A stretch of DNA of 64,000 bases, from assembly GCA_008632985.1 (NCBI GenBank), contig QPGO01000197.1, positions 1-64,000 of the forward strand. Direction: 5' to 3'. Origin of the DNA: Psammoneis japonica. Taxonomy: Eukaryota. The first letter of the stretch is position 1, and each line of letters opens with the position of its first letter. Below are positions 13,367-35,510 of the stretch, piece by piece. Both the position numbers and the translations under genes were made by a program. Under the pieces are notes generated by a model that did not search any database, was not told the origin of the DNA, and saw only the letters and a list, made by a program, of their open reading frames with translations.

Positions 13367-16318
13367 CTTGACTGTCATTGTCGGGTGGTGCAGAGTGCGC
13401 CAAAAGTTGGATCCTTCCACAGAGGATTCATGCAGGACCATGCAAATTGGATGCCAGAGGTTGTGCAGAAAAAATGCAAAATCCCTGCACTCATCTGTGA
13501 CCAAAACTGGTGGCAAAATTTCCATTCCCAGGATGCAAAACCAGGTGTGACTTGCGGGCAATGCATGACGATGACACCCCTTTGCAAGACTCAGGAAATC
13601 ATGCATCGTCAAAAGATCATCAAGAGAAGATGCAGTTTGACACTCAAAGTGCAATTTCAACCCACGTGTCCACAGATGCCATTGTCTAAAAACCGACATG
13701 TTGCATTTTCCAATTTGGTGCAAAAATGCATTTGTTTGATGACATGAGATTCAAAACTGCACTTTGACCCCCCAAACTGTGTTCCCCTGCAGCCAGGTGC
13801 AGTGCTTGTGACGCTTTGATTCTTCTTTTGTTGTGATGCTTGGCTTTTTGATGAAAACATGGATGAATTGGCTTGGCCAAGCTGAGGGAGTCCCAGTTGA
13901 ATTTGCGCTGAAGTCTGCGGTGCCACAGAAATTGCACACAAACATTTGGCCAGCGTGCTCTGCACTTGACAGGTGTCATTCACCTGGGGGCTGAGTTTTT
14001 GAAAGAGAGAAGGAAGCATGGGAGTTGTGCACAGAGACACCCTGGTTCCTCTTGGGCATGCAAAGAAAGACCTGAGTGAGGGACAGTCAGATCATTTTCA
14101 ACAAAAACAGTTTTTGACCGCAGTGCACCCGGCTTTTGCAGAACGCACTCAGAGGGGGCAAAGAGAGATTGAAACATGAGTCTCTTGCTCAACACACCAC
14201 TGGAGCAATGGTCAGACACTTCTGCAACTGCTGCAGCAACATCAAAAAACAACAAAAACGAGAGCAGCAATGGCTGCCGCAGGTTGTCCAAAGAACAGCA
14301 AGAGCAACAAGAAGGAACATCATGCCGGTGGTGACAGGAGGTCCAAGCACTTCCTGAACAAAAAAAGAGAAAACGGGAGCTTTGTGTCCAATCTTTGATG
14401 CTGCAAAACAAAGTTGCCATTGGGGAGAGCAAGAGCCACCAGTGGATGAGAAATGACAAACATGCGCGAAGAGGCTTTGCAGCGGGCAATGCCGCCTCAC
14501 CTGAAAGCATCTTTGGAGAATCCAAGCAACCATCACTCCATTCCAGGTTTGGTGTCAGCTCTGTGTTCCCCAGAAGACAATGACAAAATCAACAAGACAC
14601 AAGATCAAGGCCAAGTCAAGCAGAAGATGCTGCAGTCCGCTGCGCACTTTCACGGCTCATGCATGCATCCATGAAACTCCCCCATTGCTGTGCATTTGAG
14701 CAAGATTCAAAAGAAAGTTCAAAAGAATGATGGTGAGTTTGTGGCAGACATGAGAAAAGGAGTGAAGTGGACACCACTTGGGTTTGTTGCCAAAGCCTGA
14801 CAAGTGGCACCTTGGGAGCTGCTGGGCATGTGTCTGACTGCCATTGATCATGTCTCCATTGCACTTGCCAGCAAAACATTGTTGTGCATTCTGTGGCAAG
14901 AACAATGCAGGGTCAAAGGGGCTTGTGTTTGGGCCAAGTGTTGAATGGATGAAAACAGCATGGATGCTTTGTCAGCGCGCAGATTTCCTTGATGCTGATT
15001 GTTGTGGGAGGGTGGATGAAGAGGGGAAAAGGGCCAAATCTTTTTGCACTGTTGACCCCTTTGTTTGTCAAGGCTTCCAGCAGTCACTGGGGTCTGGGCA
15101 TGCATGAAAGTGTGGTGTGTTGCTTGGTGCATTTGTGCAATCATTCTATTTTTTTGGGAACATTCTCATCCATGGTGAACAAGACAAGATCTTTTGATTG
15201 CTCTTGATGGCAGCAGCTGAGCTGCTGTGAGAGCCTCCTCAGCTGGGATCCAGTTGAAACCATTGGATGCCATGGACAGCCGCAAGAGTTGCAAAAAGCT
15301 TCGTTGCATTTGTGAACAATGTGTTTGAGCAGCACATGCAGGGATTTTTTTAGTTTGGCCAGGACTCGCAGATTGCAATGGATGTGACATTCAAAAACTG
15401 AAGCAAGACACAGGTGCATCTGAAGGATGGGAGCCAGGTGGTGACAAAGGACAAGATGAAATGGAGCCCTTTTTGAAGTGCATTCAGGTGGCAAGGAAGG
15501 CACAATGTGCCCCAAAGCTCAGTCAACTTGACACCGACAATGCAGGTGCCAACAGTGGCATGTTCAATTGTGTTTTCTCAGGTGTGGGTTGTTCTTGGAC
15601 AAATGCAAAGCTCCAAATGATTTTCTCAGTTGCTCAGTGTGTGCCTGCATTGTTTCTGTGTCTTGTGCAGAGCTGTTGGAAGGTGTCAGCCCACATGTCC
15701 CAAAATCCAACATGCCGGTTCTTTCATTGCCTTGTCAGCATTTTCATCATTTTCAGGATGTGGCCAATGCCAATCAGGTTTTTGAAGAGAATCATGAGGC
15801 AATGGTCAATCTCAATGCCAGCCATCATGGAAAGTGCCGTGGGCTCAACGCAGAGTGGAAGAGAGGGCATGCTGTTGACGAGGGAGCATTGGCTGCAGGT
15901 GCATTTTGAGGGGTTGCCCACAGCAGTTGTTGATGTTCATGCCATGAGGGTCTTTCCCATTTGGTTGAAGTGCATGTTGGAAGATGGGCGGCTTGTTCCA
16001 TGTGGCAGACAAATCAGTGGCAACCTGAGCAGACTTTTGAAGGGTCATGGCATCAATGTCAAAGACCGTTTGGAGACAGCAGTGATTGCAAAGATGCATG
16101 ACAACTGCGGCTCCACTCGTGCAAAGGCTCTTGCAGAGTGAATTTTGATTGTGACATGATTGCTTTGCAAAGAGAAGGGACAAAGGGCTGGTTGTGAGAG
16201 AGCGTCATCTTCCTGCCAACCCAGCTGAGAGATTCTTGCATGTGTGGCAGCCGGCGCCATTGTCCACAAGCTTCTCACAGTGCAGTTGCTGAAACTGGTC
16301 TCTTCTTAACTCCAGGGC

Positions 16319-19150
16319 TTGATTCAGCCACCTGCTGAGCTTGATGTTGCGAAGGTTGGCAGCATGGCTGGCACAATTGGTGTGGAGAACAAGTCATTGC
16401 AAGAGGTGCTGTGGTTGGAATTGGCAGTGGTTGAGCTTGATGTTGTGAAGGTTGGCAGCATGGCAGACACAGTTGGTGGAGGACAAGTCATTGAAAGAGG
16501 TGCTGTGGTTAGAATTGGCAACTGCAGAGGCATGGGAGTTTCCACAAAACATGGCAGTGAGCCAGTGGGCCAAGGAAAAGCTCTGGTCCAAATTGATGAA
16601 GTGTTGTTAGATTCACAGAAGCTGCCACTCAGATTCTCAGATGATGAAGCAGACGAGGAGCCAAACCATGCAAAGGGAAACACAATTGGAGAAGTTTGCA
16701 GAAGAGGCCACTCTGACACTGTTGTGCTCCAGACAAGCCACCTTCAAGTGCCGCCTCCAGAAAAACCCAACTCAGCATTGTCTGTTCTCTTCACTGAAAA
16801 TCATCTTGACTCCAAGGGAAGCTCTGTCTCCTCAGTGCAAAACAATGAAAAGGATTCGGTGGGTCGCACAGAGTCTTTGGCTCAAAACAACAAAACTGCT
16901 GATTTGGCACAAAACAATGAAACTGCAGCATCCGATGCGATCACCAACCCAACCAAAGTCCATGCTGATGCAACAGCATCTGACACAAGTGCAGAGTCAA
17001 ACCAAGCCAAAACAATTGCCAACACATTGGCAATGGCAACACCAAATGAAATTCCAGACATGCTTTCAGACGCATCAAAACTGGATGAAAGCGCCAAGAG
17101 TGAGCTCAGAAGCCGTGCCAAAAATGACACATTTCACATGATGGACGTGCTGCTGGTGTGTCGTGATTGTCCCGTTGTTCCACACTTGTGTGAACTTGCC
17201 CAAGAGCCAACCTTTGTTTGCAATGACAATGACTGCCTCCCACTGTGAGACATGAGAAGTGTTGAAATCAAAAGGTTTCTCTCATGAAGAAATGGAAGAG
17301 TGCAAGCACCACAACAGAGAATGCATTTGAGCACAGGCAAGGATGCCATGTCCTGTCAATGACATGCACACTTCTGATCTTTGTCTTGCACATGAATTGA
17401 TTCATGAGAGCAATGCTTTCAAACAATGCCACACCCCAGAACTTGATGCATGGTTTGTCAGCACAGCAGCAAAGGCCAAGAAAGGTTGGTTTGAACCTGT
17501 GCTGGGTGTTTCAGTTTTGTCAAGAGAAGGCTCCAACTCAGATGGCTTCCGACTGTGGTGGCGTGGCAGCAGAACCAACCAATTAGAAAATTTCACCAGA
17601 AACTTTGGGCACTTCTGGCTGGTCAAGCGACAAGTGTTGAAACAGCCCACCATCTGTTGGCACTTTGAACTTTTCATTGCAATGTCAGTGCTGGTGTGTT
17701 GTGCCATGGCAAGCCCAACCTTGGCCACCCACATCTGTGCACTCTCGATGAGCTGCAGAGTGTCATTCAAAAGTTGTTCAATGTTGTCATGCTTCCCAGT
17801 CACAAGAATCTTTTTCAGACATGAAGCCAACTTGAGCTGATTGGGTTGGTGTTGGAAAGTCCACCCAAGATCCATGATTTGTTGAAAGCTTGGATGAGCC
17901 AGATGAAAGATGAAGTGCTGACACCATCTTTGAAGTTCTTGGCAAAGAGACTTGAGCTGTGACACCTGCTGATTCCCTGCAAAACCAAAGCAGACCATCT
18001 GGTTCAAAAGCAATGGTCGGGCAGCCCAAAAGAAAAACCAAAAGAAACAGACTTTGAGCGGCTCATGATTGTGCACAAAGAGCCATCAAATGGCACAGAC
18101 ATGTTTCCCAAAACCATGTCAATGGTCAAGTTGGAATGGGAAAAGGACAAAACAAGAGACAAGTGCTCAAACATGCAAAGTTGACAATGAAAGCCAAGTG
18201 TGCTGGCATCACTCAGAGTCCATGTCAACAACAGGCTTCTTGCCAACAGAGACATTTGTTTCAGGATTGCACTGGACAATGGGGCGACACAAGTGCTGGC
18301 AGATGAAACCAACTGAACTTGCACAATTGGCAAAACTGATTTGCTGAGGCTGCCGCATGGGGTCTCTGTCAACGTGCTGACTGTGTGGGACTTGTTTCAT
18401 GCTGGTGCACTCATTGATGACAATGTTGTTCAAGGACACTTTAACTTGCTCTGACAGCAATTTTCATGACTTGGCATTTGAGTTGTCAATGCAAATTTTC
18501 ACAAAAGACTGCAGTGGTTCAACTGGGCCAACGTCAATGGATGGGCAAAAGAGCTTGATGGCAAGCGCCTGGAACATGATGGGCGACAGCAGAAGGCACT
18601 CTTGCTGACATCTTCTTGGGATCAAACATGGCCAGCCACTGGCTGAACTCATTTGTTGATTGCTCTTTCAAAGGAGAAGCTGCCACAGCTGGACAGCTTC
18701 TGGTGCATGCAGCCAGCCAGCCTCCAGCCAAATGCCATCTTGCAATGGCTCTGGCAAAAGCTGGTTGCTGTGCCACTGAGTCCAGAAAAGCCGGGTGTCG
18801 AGTGTGTCATTCCTCTGCATGCTGGGCAAGGGCCCAATGATTGTGCTGTTCATTCCTGTGTTAAAGCAGCAGCAGCACATTTAAAAGCACTGGAAAATGG
18901 GACACAGCACACTTGCTGCGATGACATTCAAAAGCCAACAGCGACACTCTCATTCTCTGAAGATTCAGCCTTGGAAGACTGGGTGTGCTTGGGTCATCAT
19001 CACATCTTGCAGAGCTTGTGCAAAGGCAAAATTGATCTTGATGACCTCATTGTCACTGAGACTTCAGCGTCTGTTTGCCTCCCAGGGATTTGGCAATTCA
19101 CGAATGACAGCTGGCTGCCGACAGACCAAGCACATCAAAAAAAGTGAAAT
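16319..19150 (+). pseudogene. Decayed DNA transposon: DxxH-type transposase remnant plus Ulp1-like protease remnant
   Basis: KND(T<I)FHMMD at about 17120, SDGFRLWWRGSRTNQLENF at about 17540, N-x3-HW at about 18625-18642 and QGPNDCAV(H<Y) at about 18830, spread over several frames. Confidence 0.35.
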
Positions 19151-21589
19151 GAGCAAAATGCACATTTTGGCAACCTTTCATGTGTCATCATGTGAAATGC
19201 ACACTTGCAAAACAACACACAAAAGCAAGCACTTTGGTCTGACCTTGTTTGTGCCCCAAACTTTGCAAGCTGCAATCCCACAACACTGCCTGTCATCAAG
19301 GCCATCTCAAGCAAGTGGCCACCAAGATGCCAAGCACAGCAAAAAAAGGGGAGCAAGCAAGATGCTTTTTTGGCACAGTTTGGTGTCACAACACGCACTT
19401 GCAGCACAGTGCAAAATGGAAAACACAACAGCACAGTCTTTCATTGCCTCCCTGTCACAATCCCAGAATCCTGCCCACCATGAGTGCAGTGCAGTGGGGC
19501 TGTCTCAACCTGCTGCCAAGGAGACTGAGCACAGCAAGAAAGGCCTTGTGAGCACAATGCACACCATTTTGGCAAGGCACACAGTGTGCTGTGCTCCATC
19601 ACTGAGTGACACTTGCACCCCCACACAAACCATGCCACACATGATTGTTGCAAAATTGTGTGGAAACTGCCAGGTGTTGCACCATGTCATTGAAAGCAGC
19701 AAGCACAAGAAAGACATGACAGTGAGCAATGAGCTGAGTTGCATGCATGAGCTGACAATCAACTCAACTCAACAAACACAACACATGAAACAGAGCACCA
19801 GTTTTTGCATTGAGTTGAGACTCATCATTTCTGTTGGCACAAAATCAAAACCATGCTGAGCACTCTTGTGCAAGCACAAAGTGCGTTTTGCATCTTCTTG
19901 AGTCAAGCAAAACAGTCCTTGTGGTGACATCTCTCATTTTTCTGGGGTCCACAGCTTGTAAGTGACATGACAGAAATTGCGCCAAACTTCAGATGCTTGT
20001 TGTTCCTGCGAATGTAAGACTCTGCAGAGCCAAGTGTTTGGAAGTTTGAGAGAGCAAGAGCAAGAGAAATGGAAACATTCCATGATCTTAAAGCTCCCAG
20101 CCCATTGCTGTCTCAACACAAACAAACAGTGCAAACAAAACACACAGTTTTTGAAAAGCAGTGACGCCATTTCAAAAAACTCTTTTCAAAAACTCTTCTC
20201 ACTGTTTTTCCTGCAATGAAGAGCGGAGAGTCTCGTGGCTCTTTGCCTCTGGTTCTTTGGAGTCTCTCTCCATTTGCCTCAAGAATCATGCAGAACCTGC
20301 ACAAAATCCTGGCAGGGCAAAGAGAGATTCTCCCCACACATGAACAACACCTGCACTTTCTTCTTTCTTTGACCTGAGAGAATGAGAAGGCAGCAATTTT
20401 CCATGTTTGCAGCCAGACAAAAGGAAATGGAAAAAAGGAGTGGATGACGATGTTTGAGCATTGAAGCAGAAAACACATCCAGGGTCAAAAATGACAATCA
20501 GATTGGGTTGGGAATCTGCTCAACTCAAGCAGCTGCAGATGCAAAGACAGAAGACCCAGTGGCTGTTGTCCACAATGCCTTTGTCCTTTCTTTCCAACAA
20601 AAGAGAAAAAGAGGCCAGTCCTGAAGCCAAAAAAGAGAACACTGCACCCAATGATCAAGAGAGATGGGTGATGATCATGAGGGTGGAGCCAGCTGGTGAG
20701 GAGGACAGCGCTGCCTCTCTGGAGAGAGAGAGCAGCAAATGGAGGGCAAAGGATGCTCAGAGGGAGTCACCATCCTGTCACAGGTTGACCCCGATGCAAC
20801 ACCCAATGACTTCAATTCAGGTGCTGAGTGGCTCATTTGTGAGGCATGTGGCAAGACATGCAAGCAAGCTGAATGCTGGCACTCATCTGGCACCTGAATG
20901 GTGAAACATTGGATGGCTGAACTTGCTGGCAAGAGCGTTGTTGGTGCCAACCAGCACCCCACCCAACACAATGACACAATGCTCTGAACGGCTCCCAAGG
21001 GAAATGATTCATTGAGCTTGGGACATTGGCAGAGCAGCTTCATGGGATCAAGACATGGAAGTGGAACTCAGTCAGGTTTGTCGCGGTGTTCCAGATTGTC
21101 ATCTAAAACAGCGGGTGGGCTGCGGTGTGAAAGGAGCAAAGAAGGACATCAGAACCCCACTCAGCGCCAGACACATGGATGATTGGGAGATGTGGGTGAA
21201 CACAAAATGCTTCTTGAGTGTCTTCCAAAATGCAACTTGCAAGTGATCTCCCCAGCCCACTCGGAAGGACATGACAGGATTTGAGCAGGATTTGGGTGCG
21301 TGCGAAATGTCGCGCTGTTTAGTTCTCTTTAGTTCCGCGTGCACGCGTGCGATGCAGTTTGCTTTCGAGCCACTCGGCTCACAAGAACAATGACAGCAGC
21401 CCGATTGTGCCGACTCACACGTCTTTCGGCTCCTGCAACGGTCTCTGAGCGGAGACTCATCTGCCATTTGGACAGCAGCAAGGAGCCATTGTTTGAGTTC
21501 TTGCCATTTGCCTTCAATTTCTGTCAGATTAACAGTCTTGCTCATTGTCAACCCATTGAGCAACCGCCATCGTCGTCGTTGATTTACCG

Positions 21590-22039: not shown

Positions 22040-23202
22040 CGCGCATTCAATACCAAGCATCGGCAGGAATTTAACGTCACCGTCAAGTCTCCTTTACCGC
22101 TGGATATCTGGATTGATTATACTACCTATGATCGCTTAAGACATACATTCAACGGTTATATCCAAGTCTATCCTTGATCCTCATCCCTTTTTATACCCAT
22201 TCAACGGTTAACGGTCAAGAACCCTACATATTCATAGATCTTCGTTGCTGAAGACACACATATATATGTGTCTTCACGGCCAAGAACTTGAACCCACTCT
22301 TTAGACTGCGGCTTTGCTGCCACTCTACAAGCACACCGAGTCTATTGTACCTGATCTACCCCCGACCACTGGTGCTCTACAGTTCTACTAGGTCCACGAG
22401 GATGACTGTAAGAGCAAGTGGCCGTGGTTGCAGCCTGCGTTGGGGCGAGGGTGTTTTCCCGCGTTTGTTCGTTCGTCCACAGCACCTGACGCCTGCGTCA
22501 ACTGGCCAGCCTGATCGGGAAATCCAACCGACATAAAATAAGAACGGTTCGGGGGTCTTGTCCACCTCCAGTCAGCTTGCCTGCAGGGGTTTACAACCCG
22601 CCACTCCGCTCGCAAGCAACCCAAAGCGCCGCCAGCTGCGGGCTCGGACGTGCCGGCACAACTCTACGGACCGGATGGGAAGTTTAGCACTTAACAACAA
22701 ATGGGACAGCACAACCCGACGACTTCTGATTTTAAGATGGTCCAAGATTTCAAGTCAAGTCTGGCTCAAGTCAAGTCTTTTTCAAGCCAAGTTGCAAGTC
22801 AAAACTCCGAGTCAAGACCGCGCTCTAGATTGGCTCCTGTCTTTTGTTTCTACTGCACCGTCCTCCGTCATGGTTCTCACGTGACAGCAACAAACCGAAA
22901 GCTTCAAATACATTCTAGGCACTGTGCTCAATCAAGACGATGACAGCCCTCTTTGTTCTGCTCTGTCCATCAACGGGATTGAATCGTGTGAGGAGTTGTT
23001 CACATTCTTGCCCACCCAAATTGACGCCCTCACTTGCAGAGACGGCGCCAAAGCAGCTCCTTTGCCAGGGACCTGCAGAAACCTCCTGGCAGCTTTGATC
23101 AGCTTCCACTTTGTCAAAGTTTGCAAATAATTCTGCGATTGCCAGTGTTGAACACACCCACGTGTTTTCAGTGCCAGGCTCCCCGTAGAACAGCCGACAA
23201 CC

Positions 23203-25056
23203 ATGGCGTCTCCTTCCGTCGTTGACGGCAGCCATGCCCCTCCTCCTGTCCACAACGCCACCATGGCAGATGACATTGCCGTCGATCAGACTTCTCTTAA
23301 GTCGTCTTCTAAACCAAAAGAGCGTCAGTTTGAAGAGATTGCTCTTCGCTTCAAAATTCGTGGCCCTGCAGCGACATGCAAGCCGATGACTCTTGTCACC
23401 GCCCATTTACAAGTCTTACAGCAGATTCTTTTCACGTGTCATAAAGACGTGCAAATCCTTGACAACCACAACAACCGAATCACGCAAATCAATGTGGCTG
23501 ATTGGATTTCCTCCCTTCAGCACGAATGTCACTTCGTCATCTCCACTGCTCGCAGTGGTGAAAAATGCCCGGTCACCCATCGCTTGTGTCATCGCATTCT
23601 TACAAAGTTGCCGCTTCGCGAAATTCGCTCTCATCCTCATGTTCAAAGCATTTTGGATCTGAATGACATGTGCATGAAACGACACACCTGGAATGAATCA
23701 GTGATTGACACGGCGACACTGGCCTGTTGCATTGCCACCGCTACGAAACATGCTCCAGTCGACGACGCTGCCAAAAAGTTTCTTGGAGATTTGGGTGAAT
23801 TCAAGACCAAGATGCCAAAGTTTCGTCTGGCACCTACGTCAATCCGAGCAGATAACAACAAACTTGCCACTCCCATTCGCACAACGACTTTTGCCATTGA
23901 GGTTCAAAATGATGAGTGTCGCACTGCCGGGAGAGTCTTGTTGCACGCATCTAACAAACTCCCGACCCATGTCGTGATGGCCAAGACCCGTCACCTCTCT
24001 CCCTTGGCCTTCTACAACGCTGTCAAAACTCAAGCCCGCCGCAATGAAAACACATGCATCGTCCCGCTCTTGCACACTTCCCCAGATGTGATGTTCTACT
24101 TCGAACAAAATGTTGGGGCCTTGAAAGGCGTGCAGGACATTTGCGCCTCTAACTCCGCCGACGGGAGGTGCAACATTCTCATCAATCGAGTGGCTTTCAA
24201 GACAGCACGTGCCGCAATTTCCACGTGTGTCATGAATCTCATTCCAGATCTGCCGGAAGAATCTTACCCGACTCCTCCCTTCCCAGATCATCCTCAAGTC
24301 TCAGGCGTTTTTGACAAACCGTCGGAGACCAGCAAATCCATCGTCTCTGCGAGCATTCGCAGTCTCGAATCCCCAACCTTTTTGGACGTTTCTCCTTTGA
24401 CAGACACTCATGCTCCCAGTGCGCATCATCACCCTCCATCGCAATCTCATCCTGGTCGCGGACATGCAGGACGAGGATTCCCCGGTCGAGGTCCTGCGCG
24501 AGGTTCTCCGGTTCCACCTCAGATCTTCACCCCCCTTTCCTCCCAATCTCCGTCGAAACTTGGTCACACTGGACACCCTGGCATGCCGTCTCCCCAATTG
24601 TCTCATGCTCAAGCTGCTCAATCTACGTCAAGTTCCTCTCTTGCTTCAGCTCAGATGGCGGAAGTGCAACAGACGTTATCTCAGATGCAACACAAGAACG
24701 ATCAGGCCCCAGCCGAACTCCGCCAACAGCATTCCAAGGATGTGGAAGCTTTGAATGACACATTCAACAAACAACACACTCAAGACATGGCCACACTTCA
24801 GTCACAATGCTCCCAGCAACTGGCCGCTGTGCAGGACCAAATGAACCAAATAGTTGAACTCCTTCAAGCAAGTCAACCGTCTCAGAGCTCAGCCAGAAAA
24901 CGCCCCAACCATGTGGAAACTCCCGAGCGCCCTGGGGATGACAAAGACAGGGAATCGGATTTTCAGGCAGGGGTTGGATCTCGCCGCCTCCACCCCCTCA
25001 AGAAATTGGGCGTCCTCCCAACATTGTTGCTCGGCTCCACTCACCTCTCACTTTAA
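23203..25056 (+). pseudogene. LINE ORF1 (gag-like; RG-rich segment and coiled coil)
   Basis: Lies upstream of ORF2. GRGHAGRGFPGRG segment and Q-rich coiled coil. Only 3 Tyr in 617 aa. Confidence 0.7.
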
Positions 25057-25168: not shown

Positions 25169-28100
25169 ATGAGCAGTGCGATTTCGACTGATGATCCCTC
25201 TCTCACATGGCAGCAAATTCTCGACGGATGCAGCTGTCATCCTCCTGCTGATCGCCGGATCGATTTTTCTCGCCTCAAGATCAATGACCCTGTGGGCCAT
25301 GCACTTCGACCCAAGCTTCCGCATCATGCACGTCTGTGTGCCTTTGACGCCAATGGTTGCAAGTTCGACAAGCGCGGCGGGGACATAAATGAGCACTGTC
25401 AAATTGCTTCGGAAATCCAAGCCAACGTCATCGGCATCTCCGAAGTGTGTCTGGACACTGCCCAATTTGACATTCTCTCTGTTTGCCGTTCCACTGTCTC
25501 CAAATCTCTGCACCACGGGCGATCCACTTTCTCGACCAGCTCCACCACCTTCACTGCTCAACACAAACCAGGTGGTGCGGCTTTGTTGTCTTGCAATTCG
25601 ATGTCAGCACGTTTTCGGACTCAAGAATCAGACCCACTCGGTCAGTGGTCTATTCAAGTTTTCGACGGCAGGAACGGACGCCAAGTGATGTTCATCTCTT
25701 GCTGTCGAGTTTGCGCTAAAAACCAACAACACCCGGGGAAAACAACAGCTCATGCTCAGCAAATGTCTCTTCTCCGACAACAAGGCCGTCAGATCCTCGA
25801 CCCCAGGAAAGCCTTTTGCACCGACTTATCCCGTGTTTTGCAGGACTTTGTGGCAGAACCGAACAGGGAGGTGATCATCTTTGGCGATTTTAACACTGAT
25901 TTCAACTTCGACACAGACTCTTTGGCCACTGTTGCACAACGTTTTGATTTGTCCGACGTTCTGTTTAACATTGTGGGCGACAACGACTTCACTACATGCA
26001 CGAGGGGTTCTAAGCGCCTCGACCATGTGCTTGCCTCACCTGGTGCTCTCGCTGCGGCACGGTTCGGTGGATGCGAAGCTTTTGGTTACAGAGTTGCGTC
26101 TGATCATCGTGCTTGCTTTGTGGATTTTGACACGGTGGCCCTTTTTGGCAATCCCACCGTCGATCTACCCAAGGCATCGTTCCGGGATCTTCAGGCAACA
26201 TCCAAACCTCAGATCACCACTTGTCTTCAAGCCATCGGCCCTGTGATTCAGAGCCGCTCAGTGTTGGAGAGGTCGCGTCAGTCAATTGACCTCGAAACTC
26301 CGAATCATGCGTTGGCAGAATGCCTGGACCGTGATCTTACCCAGTTCTCCCTCGCTGCTGCCAAGAAATGCCGCTCTCACCGCGAACCAGACTGGTCGGC
26401 AGAACTGGCAGATTTGAGACATAGGGTGTGTATCTTTTCACGCCTCGCATCAATGATGCGGACAAAATTAGACTGTGTCTCACAGATTCGGTCGATTCGG
26501 GATAAACTCAGTGGATCCTTTTCCACTCCGGAGACTTTGCAAGAGTGCCAACAAGAGTTGCGTGCTGCTCAGGCAGACTGCAAGCGCTTGGCTGCCGACA
26601 GCGTGGTCCACCGTGAACGGGAGACATCAGAAAAGATGGCAGCACTCGATTTAGAAAACACCAAGGCTTCCCGCAAGCAGGCCACTACATTGCGTGACAT
26701 TCGCAAGGCAGAAGAAATGAAGAAATTGTTTGAGAAGATAGATTCTTGTCGCGCCCAGAAGGACACTGGCACACAGAGTGTACAAGTTCCTCGCAATCCC
26801 TCTGTTCCTCCGAAAGAATGTCAAGACTGGGTTGCCATCGATGCTCCGGAAGACGTGGCAACTGCTCTCCGTCAACGGAATCAGAAACACTTTGGTCAAG
26901 CACACGGCACACCCCCAACAGTCCCTCCACTGTCGGTGGACCTCGGTTGTGAAGGTGATGCGATTATGGCGGATCTCATTCTCAATGGCGAGTGTGACAC
27001 GTCTGCTTTGAATGAAGCAACAGCTCTTTTCATCAAACACTTACGACAACGGTCACCAGCGTCAGTGCCAAACCTCCTTTCTGCCTCAGACCTCGAAGGG
27101 AAAATAAAACGTTGGACAGAAACTGCCACTGCGTCCATGTGTTCTGGACTCCATCTCGGTCATTGGAAGGCAATGCATGCTCCTCATCGATTTTCTGAGG
27201 CTGCGGATTCAGAAGGCAGTCCCACTGTTGATCGTGAGGCCCTCGATGAAGTTCAACACACCCTCATTCAAATCAGGTTGAATTTGCTAAATTGCGCTCT
27301 CCGCTGGGGGTGTTCATTTCACCGTTGGCAAGATGTCGTAAATGTCATGACTTTCAAAGAGCCGGGCAACAACAAGATTCATCGTCTTTGAGTCATCCAC
27401 ACATGCGAAGCTGACTTTCAATTAATCTCGAGCGTCAAGTGGCGTGCTCCAGCTCAAAATGTGGAGCAACGTTGACCACACAATTCTGGGATCTACGGCA
27501 CTCACACTTTCTTAAATGCCAACACTCCCGTGTGCCTTGAAGAACTCATGCTGGAGATCAGCAGAGCTACACGCAAGTCTGCCATTCACAGTGATGACGG
27601 TTGCACTTCGTGCTGCGACAGAAATGTCCTTGCTTTGGTGGCAATTGAAAGCCGCAGCAACGGAATGCCCAAAGAAGTTGCCCAGGTTGCCAGTTCGACT
27701 CTTCACAAGGCTCGATGCTGGTTGCGTGTGGTGCTTGGCCTGTCTCAAGGTTCTCATTCCCATTCCGATGACTTTCCGATTTACGGTGCTGGACAGGGCA
27801 GTGGAAACTCCCCGTTCTACTGGAACCAAATCTGCAACAGTTTGTTTCAGATTTTCGATCAACGTGCACACGGTGCCCATTTCGAGACCCCTGACCGCTC
27901 TCTTTCTCTGCAGATGTTCAATCGTGGATGCGTGGATGACACATCCAAACAGGTGAACGCCTTTTGTGCGTCTCCTCAACCTTGCATTTTGGAGTTGGCT
28001 CTAAAGATGCAGGAGGATAATCAGCCATGGTGTGACCTTTTGAATGCAGCTGGACACGAGTTAGAACTGCCCAAGTGCTCCTTCCACGCAATCGAGTGGA

Positions 28101-31050
28101 TGTTCACAGATGACGGGGAACCACACCTACGACCATGCAATGAGGAGATCGACATTGAAATCTCTTCTGCTGACCGAACTGCGACACGGTCTAGCAAACA
28201 ACTGTCTGCTCATTCTGCTCACAAGACACTTGGTCATCACAAAGCTCCCGCAGGTGCGCAAAAGACTCAATGCACGGCCCTCAAACAGAAGAGCGATGGC
28301 ATTGCCTTGTTTCTTTGTTCTTGCCCCCTTGACAGACACGAGGCTTGGACCCATTGTTTTGCCTGCTGCCTGTCCTCGACTGCCTGCGTTCTCCCAAGTG
28401 CCCATTTCAAGGAGAAAGAGTTGTCAGAGGCACAAAGAAAGGCTGTGCGTGCGATTTTTGCCAAATGCGGATACAATCGAAATTCGAAACGAGATGTTCC
28501 ATTCGGACCACATTCCCCAGGAGGTGGCGGTTTCAGGTCCTTAGACATCGAACAAGGAGTTGCTCAAGTTCTACAGTTTCTTCGTCACTGGCGCGGGACA
28601 GGACAACCTCAAGCTCCATCTTGTGTTGCAGTGTCATGGATTCAGTTGCAGATCGGAGCGGGAGTCAGTTTTCTAAAAGACGTTCATGCCAAGTTGCCTC
28701 ATTCGGAATCACGCTGATTTGTGTCTCTCCAATCTTTCTTGGCAAGGATTGATGCTTCTGTTGACTGTGACGAGCCTGGCATCCTCCCGCTGCAGCGAGA
28801 CAACGACCAACGTGTCATGGACGTCGCACTTGAATCGGGCGCCTTCAGTGATCGGGAGATCAGGTGGGTCAACTGCTGTCGGTTGTGTCTCAACGCACTG
28901 ACACTGTCGGACATTGCTCTTCCAGATGGCCTCTCGCTTGACTCCTTTAAAGTCGACGGCCGATCGTCCCTTTTTAGCAGCCGCAGTGCTCTGAATCCCG
29001 TTGAACAACAACGCCCGTCTGCTCGAGCTTGGAAACAGTGGCGAAGAGCTTGTTCCTTGTTTTGCAAGGACGATTCCTTTGATCTCCGAGATCCCCCAGG
29101 TCAATGGCTCATGCCGGCCACGGAAATGCGAATGTCACACGTGGCATGCCATGAACCCTCCGAAGATCACTTGTGCATCCGTTCGGATGCTGGATTTCAA
29201 ATGTTTCCGGTGAAACACGGTTGTGCTGCCTCTGTTGCGGCCTTGGAAACTGTCCCAGATCTTTCCCCTGCGGCATCCCCGGTGCTTGTGGATGCCACCA
29301 GAAACGGTCATTGGCGAATTCGGTCTTCTGGTGCTCCAGTCTTCTTGCCAACTTTGCCTCCCGTCCCCAACGATTTTCTCTCTGTGCTGCAGTCTCTGTC
29401 TCATTGGGAATCGTCCCTGTTTGAGGAAATCACACTGCACCGGTCAACATTCGAAATCGCCGACATCTTTGCGACCCACCAAGCGTCAGCAGGTGGCAAC
29501 GGCTCGGTCCTTCAATTTCGAGGTGCCTTTGGTTGGATGATCACAATTGATGGGACACCTCTTGTGGATTGCGCAGGTCCGGTTTTCGGTTTTCGCCCAT
29601 CTTCTTGCCGAGCTGAAGCATGCGGCATGCTGTCCTTTCTCCGTTTCCTGATCTGATTGACAGAATGTTGTTCTTCATCTTTAAGAGGCGCTGACTTGCA
29701 TTGCGACAATTCTTCACTCATTCGCAACATCTCGAATTTCCAGGTGATTCCTTCTCCTCCCGAAGCAGAGGACACTCAAGGAGCCGATGACTTTCAATGG
29801 TGGCATCACATTGCTAACACCCTCTCACCAGACTGGGACATTGTCAATGAAATTTTTCACTCCCTACGACAAGCATCCGAGGTCAGCACTGACAAACTGC
29901 AGTGTCCTGTCGTAGAGATTCATTGGGTGAAAGGTCACCAAGATGATGCTCTTCCTGTGGAGTCTTTGTCCTTGGCGGCGAAGTTGAACATGCGGGCTGA
30001 CAGGTTGGCAGGACAATTCCAAGGCCAATTTTCTGGCCATGCTCTTGAAGCCCCCCGCGTGCCTCACTGTCGAGCAAATCTGATCCTCCAAGGAGCCACC
30101 GTCTCGTCCAAATGCAAGCCGGTCCTGCGACATCAGGCATCAAGTTCCGCGCTAGTCGACTGCATGAAAGAGAAATGCAGTTGGTCCGATGAAGTCTACG
30201 CATCGATCGATTGGGACGTTCGCGCGAAGCTGATGTCACGGAATGTTCGTCGAAAAGTTGGCACTGTCAAGCTGGTTCAAGATCTTCTGCCCACTGACAA
30301 AATCGTGCACAGATGCAATCCGACACGTCCGGACTGTTGCACACACTGTCAGGACCCCATGGAAGACAGAGACCACATTCTCCGTTGTCCTCACAACGAG
30401 GCCTGGCGCAGACAATTTTTACAAGGCCTGCGTAAGAAGTGCGACGACATTCACACGTCTCCCTCCTTACGAGACTTGATCATTTCGGCTGTTGAAGCAT
30501 GGTTTCGAGACAAGCTTCTTTGCTCTGAGCAATTTCATCACAGCGTCGTCCCCGTTTTCCATTCCCAAGGAGAAATGGGTTGGCGTCAGTTGTTCAATGG
30601 TCGTTTTTCGGTCCAATGGAGTACGACACAAACCTCATGTCTTACGTCGAGCGGCATTTGTCGGACCCTTTTGGACCAACAGAAACGTTTGGATTGGGCG
30701 GCAACCATTGGGAACTTTGTTTGGCAGTGGTGGGACCTGTGGGATGCTCACAATGACGCTGCACACGGACACGATTCGGAAACTAGAAAGTCCTCTCAAA
30801 GGAGAGACGCGGAAGCAGAGGTCAAGGCGATTTATTCTCGCACGGATGATTGCCTTGCGAGAGACAAGGCGCTCTTGTTGGATTCGGTGGAAGATCATTT
30901 GACGCATTCAACTCATCGGATTCGCAACTGGCTGGCAATGTTCAAACCAGTCTTTAAATCGAGCATGCGGGAAGCCAAACGGTTGGCTGCACGAGGCACC
31001 AGAACCATTGCAAGTTGCTTTGGCGCGGCGTCACCCTCGGGTGATGCCGA
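25169..31050 (+). pseudogene. LINE ORF2: apurinic endonuclease, reverse transcriptase, RNase H
   Basis: ORFs 25169, 27530, 28721 and 29657 share one frame, broken by TGA at 27389, 27473, 28715 and 29654. Motifs GISE, GDFN, RLDH, SDHR (APE); GAGQGSGNSP, CVDD (RT); SCRAEACG, CDN, WVKGHQD, NMRADRLA (RNase H); CTHC..HILRC. Confidence 0.9.
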
Positions 31051-31295: not shown

Positions 31296-31691
31296 GACGT
31301 GTTCCAGCTCTAGGTGGGACCTCGCACTGCTGAACTGTGACACAATTGTTTTTTGTCATCCATCGCATGTTTCGCGCGCACATTTCTGCGTGTTCTAACA
31401 TAAAAAATTGTTCCACACTGCCTGTTTTGCGAAGCCAAAGGCTTTCTGTTCTCTGCACTTGTGTCAATAAAAATGCGCTGGGCACATTCTTTAATGTCTA
31501 AAGAACACACCCGGGCACACTGTAAAGAATGCACTTCAAGTGTGGAGGAGGAGATGCGTTCGCAAAATTGCCTCTTTTTCTGTTGGCGATCATTCATGTG
31601 TCCATTGCTTGACAATTTTACTGCGGAGCTCGCACGCAGAATTCTGCGGGCCCAATGTCACAAAAAGTCCCACCTGGGACTGGAACCCGTC
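31296..31691. mobile_element. MITE (family A), 396 bp, TpA-mutated copy
   Basis: Same length as and colinear with 12971-13366. Ends GACGTGTTCCAG / CTGGAACCCGTC. 4-bp TSD ACCC on both sides. Confidence 0.9.
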
Positions 31692-33158: not shown

Positions 33159-33947
33159 ATGAAGGAAAACAATGTTGACAAAACTTGTGGCGTGAACATC
33201 AGCACAATCCCCGATTCCATAAAAAACACGAAGTTCAAGGACAGAGAAACAGAGATCAACGTGGCGACAGCAGCAGCGACAATCCCTGCAAACCAGGTGG
33301 AGGAAGAGAGGGCCTGCAACAATGCCACAAGCCACGAGAACCAGCCTTTGCTTCTTGAGAACATGGAAGAAAACAACGACACGATCTCGCATGACCAACA
33401 TGCTGAATTTTCTGCTCCAAAACCAAAACACGAAACACCCTGCATCATGATGCATTGCCGAATGGGACACGATGACTCGATTGTCATTTTGAACGACAGC
33501 ACGGCACAAGATGAGGATGAACATTCACCACAAGTGCGGCAACTCTGGGAGGAACTGGAACAAGCAAGTCGCATCATGGTTGGTTGGTGTGCGGCAATGC
33601 ACCTTGTTGGCTTCATGATCATGTTGCGAAGTGGCGTTAGCATGCACTGCTGCACCGACAGTTGCAGCCTGAGAGGGCCCAATCTTGGCGGGTCCAACAA
33701 CAGCGACATGCTCATGACAATCTGTCGCTTGCTCCTTGTCCTTGTAGCTGCACACTGCTTTCAGTTTGCTTTGCTTTTGGTGAGGCTATGTCGAGAGCAG
33801 TCAGACTTGTTTCTGCAGCTGTCCAGACGAGTTGGATGGACTCCAATGAGGATGGATCGACATTCGACAAATGCTCTCTTGAGGAGTGTGATTTCAGATT
33901 CTGAGGAGGATTCGGAACACGAAGATTTGAATGAAAGTTTGATTTGA
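33159..33947 (+). pseudogene. TpA-mutated paralog of the adjacent membrane-protein gene
   Basis: Aligns with 34394-35294. Tyr codons changed to His/Cys, premature TGA at 33945, internal deletion, and original TAA stop changed to CAA. Confidence 0.85.
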
Positions 33948-34393
33948 CGAGAAGATCCGAGGAATGGCGCTGCACATGATCCAACAGTGCTGGAGTCAAT
34001 CTCAGAGGCACAACATTTCAGAGTGCTGCACATGCTGAAGGGATTTTTTACATGCACTTCCAAAGATTGTAATAGAGAACAGTCAAGAAACCCATGTTTC
34101 CAATCGTGAGGAATCATCACGACACCGAATGAGCGTCGCCGCCACTCTTCCTTGTGTGTGTTCGAGATCTTCCCAAAAATTGCAGAGACATGCGCAGAAG
34201 AACCAGCTCAAAAGGATCAATTTGAGCATCTTTTTTTCCCTCCCACATTGCACCGTGTATCTAGCTGTTATTGTCCACATCAGTGTGCACCACGGAAGTA
34301 GCATGTTGTGGTGGTGGGTCTGGCTATCTTCTTGCACATCCTAATTGATAAAGTCCTGTGTGCCAGTTCTCTGCTTGTTTGTGCGAAGTTCGT

Positions 34394-35294
34394 GATGACG
34401 GGAGACGTGCAGAAAAATGTTGACACAAATTGTGGCGCGAACATCAACACAAATCCGCGATTCCCAAAACGTGAAGAGGATACAAGTATAAAGAAACACA
34501 TCTTCATCAAGATGGCGACAGCAGCGGCGATAATCCTTAAAAGCCAGGAGGAAATGAGGGCCGTCAACAATGCCACAAGCCACGAGAACCAGCCTTCGTT
34601 TCTTGAAGCTATGGAAGAAAACAACGACACTCCCTCGCACGACCAACATGCTGCTCTAAACTCAAAACGCGAACCACCCTCCATCATGATGCACTGCCGA
34701 ATGGGACACGGCTACGACTCGATTGTCATCTTAAACGATAGCACGGCACAAGACGAGGATGGATATTCGCCACATGTACGGCGACTCTTGGACGAACTGG
34801 AACAAGCAAGTCGCGTCATGGCGGGTTTCTGTGCAGCAACGTACCTTGTTGGCTTTATGATAAGGTTGGGTGTTGGCATTAGCATGTACTGCTTTGGCGA
34901 TATTTGTCTAAGAGGACTCAGTCTTGGCCGGTCCAACAACAATGACTTGCTCATGATGATCTATCTCGTGCTCCTTGTCCTTGTAGCCGTGTGCTGCTTT
35001 CAGTTTGCTTTGCTTTTGGTGAGGCTTTACCGAGAGCAGCCAGACTTGTTTCCACAATTTTCCAGACGAGGTGGATGGACTCAAACAAGGATGGATCGAC
35101 ATTCCGCCAACACTCTCTTGAAGAACATGATTGCAGATTTGAACGAGTTGCGCAATTCCATTTGTTGTTTGGTAAAGTCTTCGGAGGAGGATTCGGAACA
35201 GGAAGATTTGAATGAAAGCTTGATTGAACGAGAAGATCCGAGTATTGCCGCTACACTTGAGCCCACGATACAAGAGTCGATCTCAGAGTCATAA
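34394..35294 (+). CDS. Hypothetical membrane protein with two hydrophobic segments
   Basis: Open frame 34308-35294 with normal TpA/Tyr content and two predicted TM stretches. Start uncertain. Confidence 0.65.
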
Positions 35295-35510
35295 CATTTG
35301 ACAGTACTACACATACTGAAGGTATGTTTTGCATACACACCTCCAAAAAAGTAATAGTTAACAGTTAAGAAACCTGTGTTTCCAATCGTAAGGAATCACC
35401 ACGATACCGAGCGAGTTCAAAGGTAAGAGAGTTGCCGCCGCCACTCTTCCTTGCATGCGCTCAAGATTTTCCTGAGCCTCGTATATGCGAGAGTTACTAC
35501 AACATTGTCT

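Follow-up and report, generated by a model that had tools for sequence, protein, structure and literature searches.

The question raised by this locus is how the second open reading frame of a LINE could lose nearly all of its tyrosines and die while remaining in a single unbroken frame. It lies in a 64-kb stretch of DNA, all of which was analysed and is called the window below; its features are listed in Table 1. Our best explanation, which we consider likely as a whole, is that a full-length but dead LINE, made of ORF1 and ORF2 and residing in a diatom-like nuclear genome, was rewritten together with repeats by targeted TpA-specific transitions, probably through adenine deamination, ahead of 5-methylcytosine decay.

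Table 1. Features of the window
Feature	Coordinates	Strand	Remarks
LINE ORF1	23152..25053	+	634 codons, open; TpA-poor, 9.5 TA per kb; 3 Tyr
LINE ORF2	25169..31048	+	1960 codons, one frame; hypermutated, dead; 7 Tyr; 55 TA left
AP-endonuclease (Exo_endo_phos) domain	25391..26107	+	Pfam PF03372, E 4.7e-8, residues 79-313; also mapped from relative P0056
Reverse-transcriptase region	27386..28105	+	RVT_1 of relatives aligns here: P0009, P0056 (pass cutoff), P0002 (does not)
RNase H region	29483..30016	+	by alignment: PF00075 of relative P0056, 23.2 bits, just below cutoff 25.8
zf-RVT region	30239..30400	+	by alignment: PF13966 of relative P0002, 26.9 bits, cutoff 27.5
In-frame TGA, codon 741	27389..27391	+	Arg in 45/45 relatives; CGA>TGA
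In-frame TGA, codon 769	27473..27475	+	column variable across relatives
In-frame TGA, codon 1183	28715..28717	+	Trp in 40/45 relatives; TGG>TGA
In-frame TGA, codon 1496	29654..29656	+	Arg in 22/45, His in 16/45 relatives
Copy A, hypermutated paralogue of 34413-35472	33168..34173		76% identity over 1079 bp; adjoins LINE region
Copy B, TA-normal paralogue	34413..35472		beside host DUF4461 gene
Hypermutated copy of 400-bp repeat	31296..31691		abuts LINE 3' end; 8 TA; 74.5% identical to 12971-13366
TA-rich copy of 400-bp repeat	12971..13366		29 TA; taken as unmutated comparator
Largest TA-free, CpG-poor block, old relic	13688..21104		1.6 TA, 11 CG per kb
TA-free block, intermediate CpG	5336..9320		2.5 TA, 26 CG per kb
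TA-free, CpG-poor block	1722..3367		dinucleotide composition
TA-free, CpG-poor block	49506..51593		dinucleotide composition
TA-poor, CpG-poor block	59000..60600		dinucleotide composition

The identification of the element as a LINE with an ORF2 of the APE-RT-RNase H type is supported, since the copy itself matches Exo_endo_phos and its relatives carry RVT_1, RNase_H and zf-RVT domains at aligned positions. No Pfam match to RVT_1 was obtained in the copy itself at E ≤ 1. ORF2 contains no frameshift, because its tblastn alignment with intact relatives is single and continuous over 1944 aa, and no indel was detected over the 1960 codons. Judging by this unbroken frame alone, the copy may be young. 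The single frame and scarcity of tyrosine reported in the preliminary description are borne out: ORF2 contains 7 Tyr, together with 82 Cys and 80 His, and all four of its in-frame stops are TGA. Its TpA observed/expected ratio (o/e) is 0.16 and its CpG o/e is 0.85. ORF1 matches reading frames located upstream of ORF2 at relatives' loci L066, L077, L006, L071 and L074 (tblastn, E 4e-14 to 2e-6), and gave no Pfam match. His gain apparently exceeds Cys gain in ORF1, with a baseline of 11 relatives' ORF1 pieces that is too poor to judge.

Across 74 relatives, tyrosine represents 2.6–4.7% of residues and cysteine about 1.8%; the probability of observing 7 Tyr or fewer among 1960 residues at 2.6% is 9e-15. 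At the loci of 44 relatives with an ORF longer than 1500 aa, the median Tyr content is 3.44% (minimum 2.38), the median TpA o/e is 0.68 (0.44–0.86) and the median CpG o/e is 0.99. Per 1000 codons, the LINE harbours 28 TA versus a median of 133, and about 76% of its expected TpA is gone; TG is up by about 95 and CA down by about 14 relative to the medians of these relatives, which are only about 40% identical to the copy. CpG is still abundant, as had been stated, with 169 per 1000 codons versus 163.

Alignment of the copy with 45 relatives, a check that the preliminary description had proposed, revealed 31 columns with Tyr in at least 60% of them. The copy carries Cys at 21 of these columns, His at 3, Phe at 3, Tyr at 3 and Val at 1. 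Retention is thus 10% for Tyr, as compared to 43–91% for the other conserved residues, only Ile (43%) and Thr (57%) being kept below 68%. Among 622 conserved columns, 180 are changed in the copy and 78 of these can be explained by a single transition: A>G in 37 cases (32 with a 5' T), T>C in 11 (9 with a 3' A), G>A in 14 (8 at CpG) and C>T in 16 (6 at CpG). The other 102 are not single transitions; the copy is, besides, plainly divergent from all known relatives.

The direction of change, TA to TG or CA, had been deduced by reverting individual motifs, and it is confirmed both by the 45 intact relatives and by two paralogue pairs within the window. The motifs themselves fared unequally. In the endonuclease domain, TCTRGSKRLDH derives as proposed from TYTRGSKRLDY (codon 277, Y in 31/45 relatives, is now C; codon 286, Y in 30/45, is now H), whereas the case for SDHRAY at codon 316 is weak, with Y in 5/45. 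The derivation of IHTCEAD from IHIYEAD holds at codon 746 (Y in 44/45, now C) and is plausible at codon 745 (I in 18/45, ATA>ACA), and that of the RNase H motif from SSYRAEAYG holds at codon 1485 (Y in 31/45, now C) and is plausible at codon 1480 (Y in 17 and F in 21 of 45). The RT motif, CVDD in the copy, had been traced to YVDD, but the latter is not the family norm: codon 921 is F in 41/45 relatives and Y in 4/45, including P0003 and the closest relative, P0001. Loss of an active-site Tyr is therefore plausible but unproven. A CGA>TGA origin of the stops can be retained for codon 741 and may apply to codon 1496, where about half of the relatives bear Arg, but not to codon 1183. The frame would stay open, with TGA as its only stop, because TAA and TAG can neither survive nor arise under loss of TpA.

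In each of the two duplicated pairs, one copy is mutated and the other spared. The 36 TA of copy B correspond in copy A to 13 CA, 13 TG, 4 TA and 6 other dinucleotides; in the reverse comparison, 7 TA correspond to 4 TA, 1 CA, 1 TG and 1 TT. The 400-bp repeat, which is present in very high copy number (summed contig depth of 50,000–125,000 in run X1), gave a similar picture, its 29 TA being replaced by 10 TG, 9 CA and 7 others, with 3 retained, and the 8 TA in reverse matching 3 TA, 2 CA, 1 TG and 2 AA. Conversions of TA to TG or CA therefore number 26 forward versus 2 in reverse for the first pair and 19 versus 3 for the second (binomial p = 3e-6 and 9e-4). Losses of TpA exceed those of CpG in both, with 26/36 (72%) versus 16/53 (30%; p = 2e-4) in the first pair and 19/29 (66%) versus 3/27 (11%; p = 3e-5) in the second.

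Taken as a whole, the window alternates between repeat blocks free of TA and host genes with normal TA, the named relatives of the latter being diatoms. TA-free blocks contain 0–3 TA per kb versus 34–56 in host DNA, and the borders between them are sharp, within about 200 bp. TA o/e is inversely correlated with (TG+CA) o/e (Spearman −0.83). Host-gene regions have a TpA o/e of 0.50–0.60, under the median found for the LINE relatives, which come from other organisms, and segment 21200–22400, which holds no recognised gene and separates a TA-free relic from the LINE, has a TA o/e of 0.74. Older blocks devoid of both TpA and CpG had been described, and the largest block is one; CpG o/e in the old relics is 0.20–0.43, and no credible Pfam domain was found in the six read-through frames of 13688–21104. 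Cut into 128 bins of 500 bp, the window shows low TpA at normal CpG in 14 and the opposite combination in none. The LINE, the two pairs and these 500-bp bins agree with the earlier claim that loss of TpA can be separated from that of CpG, and show it to be the more complete of the two.

The outcome of conversion depends on flanking bases. In the two pairs, RTAR sites gave CA in 9 cases versus TG in 3, whereas YTAY sites gave TG in 12 versus CA in 3 (p = 0.007); RTAY and YTAR sites were split 7 to 5 and 3 to 3. Counted per strand, conversions affected 21/37 TAC, 12/34 TAT, 8/36 TAA and 4/21 TAG. The edited A thus favours a 3' pyrimidine on either strand (TAC > TAT > TAA, TAG), a rule drawn from 45 TA>TG/CA conversions (64 scored TA sites) in two pairs. 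Tyr codons, being TAY, are the preferred context, explaining why Tyr has nearly disappeared from ORF2, mostly in favour of Cys. The T>C events of ORF2 occur mostly at CTA (T-A-G on the antisense strand), a non-preferred context, and count against our explanation.

TG and CA had been treated as equivalent outcomes, and this is not the case in ORF2, which shows an additional sense-strand A>G excess. Tyr became Cys in 21 of 24 cases, whereas a strand-symmetric simulation on 44 relatives predicts a share of 0.55–0.66 (p = 0.0035 for 0.60 and 0.017 for 0.66), and in the R-TAY context Cys outnumbers His by 13 to 1, the corresponding ratio for the two pairs being 5 to 7 (p = 0.009). A TG/CA skew at least equal to that of the copy occurs in 1 of the 44 relatives. 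The excess is no longer significant once every NTAY context is taken together (23 to 4 versus 17 to 10, p = 0.12).

We propose that A of 5'-TA-3' is changed to G on either DNA strand, read as TA>TG or TA>CA, and that such transitions were probably the main cause of LINE inactivation. The process would work in place, at the DNA level, on whole repeat-derived chromosome segments; its targets include the LINE, the abutting short repeat, the neighbouring duplicated segment and several older relics, adjacent host genes and unique DNA being spared. Within the same segments, TpA conversion runs well ahead of the decay of CpG to TpG or CpA. The data above establish the specificity and direction of the changes, the rule on flanking bases, the confinement to certain regions and the order with respect to CpG loss. 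The chemistry may be enzymatic deamination of adenine to inosine, read as G, with a TadA/ADAT2-type polynucleotide adenosine deaminase, as proposed for Bigelowiella natans, as candidate agent. This enzyme might be brought to the silenced chromatin of repeats and act there as a genome defence. The sense-strand excess of ORF2 could reflect LINE sense transcription, which would leave the non-template strand exposed or supply RNA that is edited before being reverse-transcribed.

Alternatively, an RNA adenosine deaminase could have hyper-edited the LINE transcript (A to I at UpA) before reverse transcription, so that the copy was born dead and the DNA was never touched in place. The preponderance of Cys over His at Tyr codons (21 versus 3), its 13 to 1 ratio at R-TAY and the gain of TG with no gain of CA all fit such a scenario. 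However, non-LINE neighbours are equally TpA-depleted with even strands (13 to 13 in segment A, 10 to 9 in the 400-bp repeat), nine T>C changes at TpA lie in ORF2 itself, and 3' G is the least favoured base here, whereas ADAR enzymes favour it. We consider RNA editing unlikely as the sole cause; it would be at most an addition to the in-place process. Attack on the thymine side would produce T>C, with A>G as the other strand; it could stem from a modified T at TpA (such as 5-hydroxymethyluracil or a J-like base, the product of a TET/JBP-type dioxygenase) or from error-prone repair of that base. The palindromic target and two-strand outcome suit T and A equally, and modified thymines in TpA context are known from dinoflagellates; we know of no such modification in diatoms. 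Since the outcome is predicted by the base lying 3' of the converted A, that is 5' of the partner T and not next to the converted T, recognition of T-A-Y around A is the simpler reading, and a thymine-side origin appears quite improbable.

A slow, untargeted drift of TpA to TpG and CpA across the genome, leaving old neutral DNA TA-free and genes protected by selection, would account for the lowish TpA of host genes, but is hard to reconcile with the sharp borders, with the TA kept by 21200–22400, where no gene is recognised, or with pairs in which only one of the two copies has been depleted. In the LINE, moreover, some three quarters of the TpA disappeared without one indel and with the CpG count intact, making such a drift very unlikely. 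Modification-dependent systematic miscalls do occur in nanopore data, and dense TpA modification in heterochromatin might have been miscalled as TG or CA by a long-read base-caller. Nevertheless, contigs from run X1, a public run that is possibly from the same sample as the assembly of the window and so maybe not independent, differ little over the LINE (11 differences over 521 nt, 10 over 494 nt), whereas native TA would require about 16 or more differences per 500 nt. Of the 1454 differing places, the 40 best supported include 2 at which run X1 regains a TA and 3 at which it loses one. The mutated copies also bear ordinary divergence and indels, and we give hardly any credence to an artefact.

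Targeted TpA editing of DNA recalls several known systems. As in RIP of ascomycete fungi, context-bound transitions riddle repeats and transposons, kill ORFs and leave sharp-edged compositional blocks. RIP, however, is C>T at CpA and thereby creates TpA and stop codons, whereas the present process removes TpA and does not close frames; moreover, RIP mutates both copies of a duplication, whereas one copy per pair is untouched here. APOBEC3 (C>U on cDNA) and ADAR (A>I on dsRNA) likewise kill retroelements by enzymatic deamination through clustered, context-specific transitions. APOBEC gives G>A/C>T, unlike the TpA process. ADAR, to our knowledge restricted to animals, acts on RNA only and gives A>G on one strand, whereas both DNA strands are affected in the non-LINE neighbours. 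Decay of 5-methylcytosine is also at work in the same blocks, with CpG>TG/CA changes in the pairs and the LINE, but it concerns another dinucleotide and is slower. TadA and ADAT2 target A34, which always follows U33, and in tRNA-Arg(ACG) C35 comes next. This T-A-C-like context matches the best context here; activity on chromosomal repeat DNA is not established for any diatom enzyme.

The closest parallel is B. natans, in which, according to the sections consulted of a recent preprint (bioRxiv 10.64898/2026.01.13.699255, April 2026), de novo A>G/T>C changes occur only at TpA, at about 1000 times background, in integrated giant-virus and virophage DNA. RT and endonuclease-RT domains are over-represented among the low-TpA coding sequences of that species, and the candidate enzyme is an ADAT2 homologue; the same source refers to reports that ADAT2 of amphioxus and of trypanosomes edits DNA and mentions in its Discussion that ADAR shares the 5' U preference. 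Both cases involve A>G/T>C only, at TpA only, on both strands and in particular foreign-derived regions. B. natans is a chlorarachniophyte (Rhizaria), whereas the named relatives of the window are diatoms (Stramenopiles), a group for which our literature searches found no report of TpA-only hypermutation. Its events arose de novo in mutation-accumulation lines, whereas our evidence, with no de novo events, consists of the fossil trace left in a single stretch of 64 kb. Depletion is deeper here (TpA o/e of 0.01–0.17 versus 0.45 for the B. natans NCLDV region). Relative to those sections and to term searches of the preprint, the 3'-pyrimidine preference, the order with respect to CpG decay, the mutation of one copy of a duplicate and the LINE sense-strand excess appear to be new. 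As far as that source shows, the footprint described here matches a targeted DNA-editing defence reported so far once, in an unrelated alga.

The LINE under study is a dead copy whose ORF2 extends over 1960 codons in a single frame containing four in-frame stops, all of them TGA. The translation holds 7 Tyr, 82 Cys and 80 His, and the observed/expected ratios (o/e) of TpA and CpG are 0.16 and 0.85, respectively. A tblastn search of the window with two relatives returned one segment of about 1950 residues, so that no frameshift is present, as the preliminary description had claimed, and no second copy of the family was detected within the window. The native ORF2 stop was not located, the reading frame continuing to 31195, and the ends of the LINE are obscured by adjoining repeats. 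The AP-endonuclease (Exo_endo_phos, PF03372; residues 79-313, E 4.7e-8, 33.5 bits for a cutoff of 24.5) was the sole Pfam domain found in this ORF2, and RVT_1 gave no Pfam match even at E<=1. Intact ORF2 proteins with RVT_1 above cutoff at the same place (P0009, 32.4 bits; P0056, 29.9 bits) align with the whole length of the copy (E 0), and the VDD triplet at codons 922-924, invariant among relatives, is kept. RNase H was seen by alignment to P0056 alone, where PF00075 scores 23.2 bits, under the cutoff of 25.8. Upstream, an ORF of 634 codons weakly matches (20-24% identity) the ORFs preceding ORF2 in the loci of five relatives and was therefore assigned as ORF1. By its AP-endonuclease domain and separate upstream ORF1, the copy is an APE-type LINE. 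Ambal, the clade name that appears in the preliminary description, is in use in a diatom genome paper. Between 22400 and 23150, TA dinucleotides number about 4 per 200 bp, a gradual step between normal DNA (7-9) and the LINE (0-4). The segment 23000-23333, with high depth in run X1 (a public sequencing run), is probably another repeat fragment at the 5' edge of the LINE.

A search of the protein collection with residues 600-1250 retrieved 74 relatives, most of them intact and 1900-2100 aa long, the best at 47% identity; the few that are named come from diatoms (Epithemia, Cylindrotheca). Tyr makes up 2.6-4.7% of these proteins and Cys about 1.8%. DNA of 80 relatives, kept out of 413 confirmed, was taken from metagenome contigs, and the 44 with an ORF above 1500 aa served as baseline. 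These intact relatives have a TpA o/e of 0.44-0.86 (median 0.68), a median CpG o/e of 0.99 and at least 2.38% Tyr; at the lowest frequency found among relatives, the probability of 7 Tyr in 1960 codons is 9e-15. Per 1000 codons, the copy departs from the medians of the relatives by about -105 TA, +95 TG and -14 CA. No further Tyr-erased copy was found among the 80 metagenome relatives, a search biased against such copies, since one of the two query peptides contains Tyr.

Tyr is present in at least 60% of 45 relatives at 31 alignment columns, where the copy has Cys 21 times, His, Phe and Tyr three times each and Val once. At positions 179, 746, 816 and 1063, Tyr is invariant or nearly so among relatives and the copy has Cys. 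The remaining conserved residues are kept in 43-91% of their columns, with Ile (43%) and Thr (57%) as the two that lie below 68%. A native low-Tyr composition, or adaptive avoidance of TpA by an active element, was rejected on the basis of the four stops and of these near-invariant Tyr positions that are now Cys. Over 622 conserved columns the copy differs at 180, and a single transition away from the consensus residue suffices to account for 78 of these: 37 A>G (32 with a 5' T), 11 T>C (9 with a 3' A), 14 G>A (8 at CpG) and 16 C>T (6 at CpG). Hence 41 of the 48 A>G and T>C changes sit at TpA. The other 102 changed columns, which are not single transitions, reflect ordinary divergence from all known relatives.

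The motifs that the preliminary description had restored by reverting TG or CA to TA were recovered in part. The alignment confirmed Y277>C, Y286>H, Y746>C and Y1485>C, and made reversion plausible at codon 745 (Ile in 18 of 45 relatives, ATA>ACA) and at codon 1480 (Tyr in 17 and Phe in 21 of 45). The SDHRAY reconstruction is weak, with Tyr in 5 of 45 relatives. As for the CVDD motif of the RT, read as a former YVDD, 41 of 45 relatives have FVDD and four YVDD, and a Tyr origin of the Cys is unproven; the one-transition route points to Tyr, and two of the four with YVDD are P0001, the closest relative, and P0003. Two stops fit the suggestion of CGA>TGA changes, at codon 741 (Arg in 45 of 45) and codon 1496 (Arg in 22 of 45). 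The TGA at codon 1183 faces Trp in 40 of 45 relatives (TGG>TGA), and that at codon 769 lies in a column that varies among relatives.

Examined in steps of 200 bp, the window alternates sharply between TA-free and TA-normal segments, and the older blocks do lack both TpA and CpG, as had been noticed from the sequence. TA o/e is inversely related to (TG+CA) o/e (Spearman -0.83), and host genes are spared.

Position and dinucleotide content of the LINE, its domains and the surrounding segments
Feature	Position	Strand	TA per kb	CG per kb	Basis
ORF1	23152-25053	+
ORF2	25169-31048	+
RVT_1 region	codons 740-979 of the copy	+			mapped from intact relatives
RNase_H region	codons 1439-1616 of the copy	+			mapped from intact relatives
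zf-RVT region	codons 1691-1744 of the copy	+			mapped from intact relatives
LINE			9.8	55.8
LINE 3' neighbours	31.05-34.2 kb		7.0	37
TA-free, CpG-poor blocks	1.7-3.4, 5.3-9.3, 12.2-12.8, 13.7-21.1, 49.5-51.6, 59.0-60.6 kb		0.6-4.4	11-26
Host regions			34-44	51-59
Host DUF4461 gene	35514-36953	-

Among 128 windows of 500 bp, 14 are low in TpA with normal CpG (11 of them in the LINE), 35 are low in both, and none is low in CpG with normal TpA. The same segments are thus struck by both processes, TpA loss always coming first. Long stop-to-stop ORFs occur in all frames of the TA-free blocks because TAA and TAG are absent; those of 150-330 codons found in several frames and on both strands at 13688-21104 and in similar blocks are composition artefacts and not genes. 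Scanning 63 ORFs of at least 150 aa detected no Pfam domain in the old TA-free blocks, matches being restricted to host genes (RING, FeeM-like, DUF4461, ankyrin, lipase, ATG1-like kinase, LRR, Kelch and aldo-keto-reductase). The six read-through frames of 13688-21104 gave only a zf-C4 match below cutoff, which was taken as spurious and presumably arises from Cys enrichment. The DUF4461 protein has its best match at 58% identity, and its named relatives are solely diatoms (Amphora, Conticribra); the genome was accordingly taken to be that of a diatom or of something closely related. The host regions at 34300-49400, 51700-58900 and 60700-64000 have a TpA o/e of 0.50-0.60, under the median of 0.68 for intact LINE relatives, which belong to other organisms, with CpG at about 1.0; this may be a weak genome-wide leak of the TpA process or ordinary UpA avoidance. 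Short tandem duplications are present in TA-normal DNA at 21922-22039 (59 bp, 100% identity) and 37190-37347 (78 bp, 97%). In the TpA-poor zone 3' of the LINE, 32187-32760 is internally repetitive, with overlapping self-matches offset by about 84-290 bp at 72-84% identity.

Self-comparison of the window yielded two useful pairs of paralogous sequences. In pair 1 (76% identity), the 36 TA of the normal copy (34413-35472) read CA 13 times, TG 13 times and TA four times in the poor copy (33168-34173), with six other outcomes; reading the 7 TA of the poor copy in the normal one gave TA 4, CA 1, TG 1 and TT 1. Pair 2, a 400-bp repeat, has 29 TA at 12971-13366 and 8 at 31296-31691. The 29 read TG 10, CA 9, TA 3 and other 7, and three of the 8 were converted in the reverse sense. 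Conversions of TA to TG or CA therefore number 26 against 2 reverse ones in pair 1 (p=3e-6) and 19 against 3 in pair 2 (p=9e-4), which agrees with the direction that the preliminary description had proposed and that the Tyr columns of the relatives bear out. Out of 53 CG of the normal copy in pair 1, 27 are kept and 16 are now TG or CA (5 in the reverse count); of 27 in pair 2, 16 are kept and 3 are now TG or CA. More TpA than CpG has been lost in both pairs (p=2e-4 and p=3e-5), and with the 500-bp windows this supports the central inference of the preliminary description, that TpA loss outpaces CpG decay, just as its observation of an ORF2 stripped of Tyr is confirmed. Products are strand-balanced, with TG and CA at 13 to 13 in pair 1 and 10 to 9 in pair 2. 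Since one copy only is mutated in each pair, duplication alone is not the trigger. Summed contig depth of run X1 over the 400-bp repeat is 50,000-125,000, compared with 250-1000 over the LINE; the repeat is likely to be a short non-autonomous element present in very many copies.

The pairs also allowed us to read flanking bases from the unmutated copies. RTAR sites became CA 9 times and TG 3 times, whereas YTAY sites became TG 12 times and CA 3 times (Fisher p=0.007); RTAY sites gave 7 CA to 5 TG and YTAR sites 3 to 3. Conversion per strand depends on the base 3' of the A (C 21/37, T 12/34, A 8/36, G 4/21), with p=8e-4 for TAC versus TAR. These counts define the target as 5'-T-A-Y-3' on either strand. 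In agreement with this rule, TAA and a 5' pyrimidine are over-represented among the 55 TA that survive in ORF2.

Tyr codons being TAY, the T-A-Y rule alone accounts for much of the preference for Tyr>Cys. We simulated a strand-symmetric T-A-Y process on the 44 intact relatives until 76% of TA were lost; under this process, the expected share of Tyr conversions that yield Cys is 0.55-0.66, and the TG/CA skew ends at about -0.20. The observed share was 21 of 24 (p=0.0035 against 0.60, p=0.017 against 0.66), and the skew of the copy, -0.026, was reached by 1 of 44 relatives, before and after simulation alike. In the R-TAY context, ORF2 has 13 Cys and 1 His where the pairs have TG 5 and CA 7 (p=0.009), a contrast that weakens when all NTAY contexts are pooled (p=0.12). 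Detectable ORF2 changes include both products, TG and CA at 32 to 9 overall and 21 to 3 at Tyr. The extra A>G on the LINE sense strand was taken as real, with moderate support. A regional replication-strand effect was considered as its source and is unlikely, as the adjoining sequences at 31.3-34.2 kb are strand-symmetric. Transcription of the LINE would account for it most simply, either because the non-template strand is exposed or because the RNA is edited before reverse transcription. For ORF1, pieces from 33 relatives were aligned and gave three Tyr-rich columns, none informative for strand bias. ORF1 contains 5.4% His and 2.2% Cys, against about 0.4-3.8% and 0-1.1% in the ORF1 pieces of 11 relatives, a poor baseline; this hints that TA>CA is commoner in the 5' part of the LINE than in ORF2.

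Run X1, which contains 43% of sampled words, was compared with the window by placing its contigs at 80% likeness. The 4894 contigs placed were distributed as 760, 1274, 1703 and 1157 at 99% or more, 95-99%, 90-95% and under 90% identity, a spread indicating multi-copy sequence in the region. Among the 40 best-supported of 1454 differences, examined over 23000-31000, 12 of the 17 with A in the window and G in the run are CpA in the window and CpG in the run, and in two places TpG in the window faces CpG in the run. The CpA-versus-CpG excess may have arisen by strand-skewed CpG decay that is private to this copy or this haplotype, or else during assembly, at methylated CpG.

The process observed here is specific for TpA and directional, acts on both strands with a preference for T-A-Y, is confined to particular regions and precedes CpG decay. 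Its probable cause is deamination of adenine, for which the candidate enzyme would be of the TadA/ADAT2 type and would be drawn to silenced repeats; the tRNA substrate of TadA/ADAT2 presents its target in the context U33-A34-C35, which matches T-A-C. Editing of RNA before insertion could by itself produce A>G on a sense strand and is an unlikely sole cause, since it explains neither the T>C events nor the neighbouring sequences outside the LINE. A modification chemistry acting on the thymine side of TpA appears still less probable. We give very little weight to an untargeted genomic TpA bias, which is contradicted by the sharp block borders, by adjoining TA-normal DNA without a recognised gene and by the pairs in which one copy only is mutated. 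A base-calling artefact is the most improbable of these explanations: X1 contigs match the TA-poor LINE sequence to about 98%, although the run may be the sample behind the assembly itself and thus not independent of it.

A process of this kind has been described in the chlorarachniophyte Bigelowiella natans. According to the accessible text of a preprint (bioRxiv 10.64898/2026.01.13.699255, April 2026), two integrated viral regions mutate about 1000x faster than the remaining genome in mutation-accumulation lines, nearly all changes are A>G/T>C and every one falls at TpA, CDS with low TpA show an excess of RT, endonuclease-RT and DDE domains, and an ADAT2-like adenosine deaminase is proposed; that text contains no mention of diatoms, and nothing was found in it on preferred flanking bases or on CpG decay. 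Our literature search, which covered papers other than subscription-only ones, found no other report of TpA-targeted hypermutation, and none for diatoms. The window shares with B. natans the A>G/T>C changes at TpA, both products, the confinement to repeats or foreign regions and the clusters low in TpA and high in CpA and TpG. It differs in concerning another eukaryotic lineage and ordinary transposons, in its much deeper footprint and in being known from that footprint alone. The case in the window is the same kind of process, with new mechanistic detail.

Fungal RIP changes C>T at CpA and enriches TpA, whereas here TpA is destroyed and CpA and TpG are enriched; RIP also mutates both copies of a duplication, whereas the pairs of the window keep TA in one copy (36 versus 7, 29 versus 8). 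ADAR-type RNA hyper-editing would give A>G on the transcript strand only, in contrast to the strand-symmetric neighbours and the nine T>C at TpA in ORF2; a contribution to the ORF2 skew is possible. Decay by 5mC deamination (CpG>TpG/CpA, with CpG depletion) is minor in the LINE (14 conserved-column events and two or three of the four stops) and strong in the old blocks of the window.

We tentatively propose, as a serious possibility that falls short of being probable, that diatoms, and perhaps SAR protists generally, own an adenine-deaminase genome defence that would be the mirror image of fungal RIP. It would be aimed at silenced repeat chromatin and not at duplication as such. T-A-Y would be its target on either DNA strand, transcribed elements would be edited further on their sense strand, whether exposed or as RNA, and a newly inserted transposon would be sterilised well before 5mC decay could do so; an optimum at T-A-C would suggest that the enzyme is a TadA/ADAT2 paralogue with a new function. 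Such an enzyme would be a DNA adenine base editor of natural origin, of interest to base-editing technology, and four features offer ways to look for it: the T-A-Y rule, the lead of TpA loss over CpG loss, the sparing of one copy in each pair and the strand skew. Transposon annotation would be confounded, by Tyr-less, stop-less pseudo-ORFs in six frames and by RT domains that Pfam does not recognise. If the proposal is true, the system would have a wide distribution within a group with a large share of ocean primary production, whose repeat landscapes would be shaped by TpA editing.
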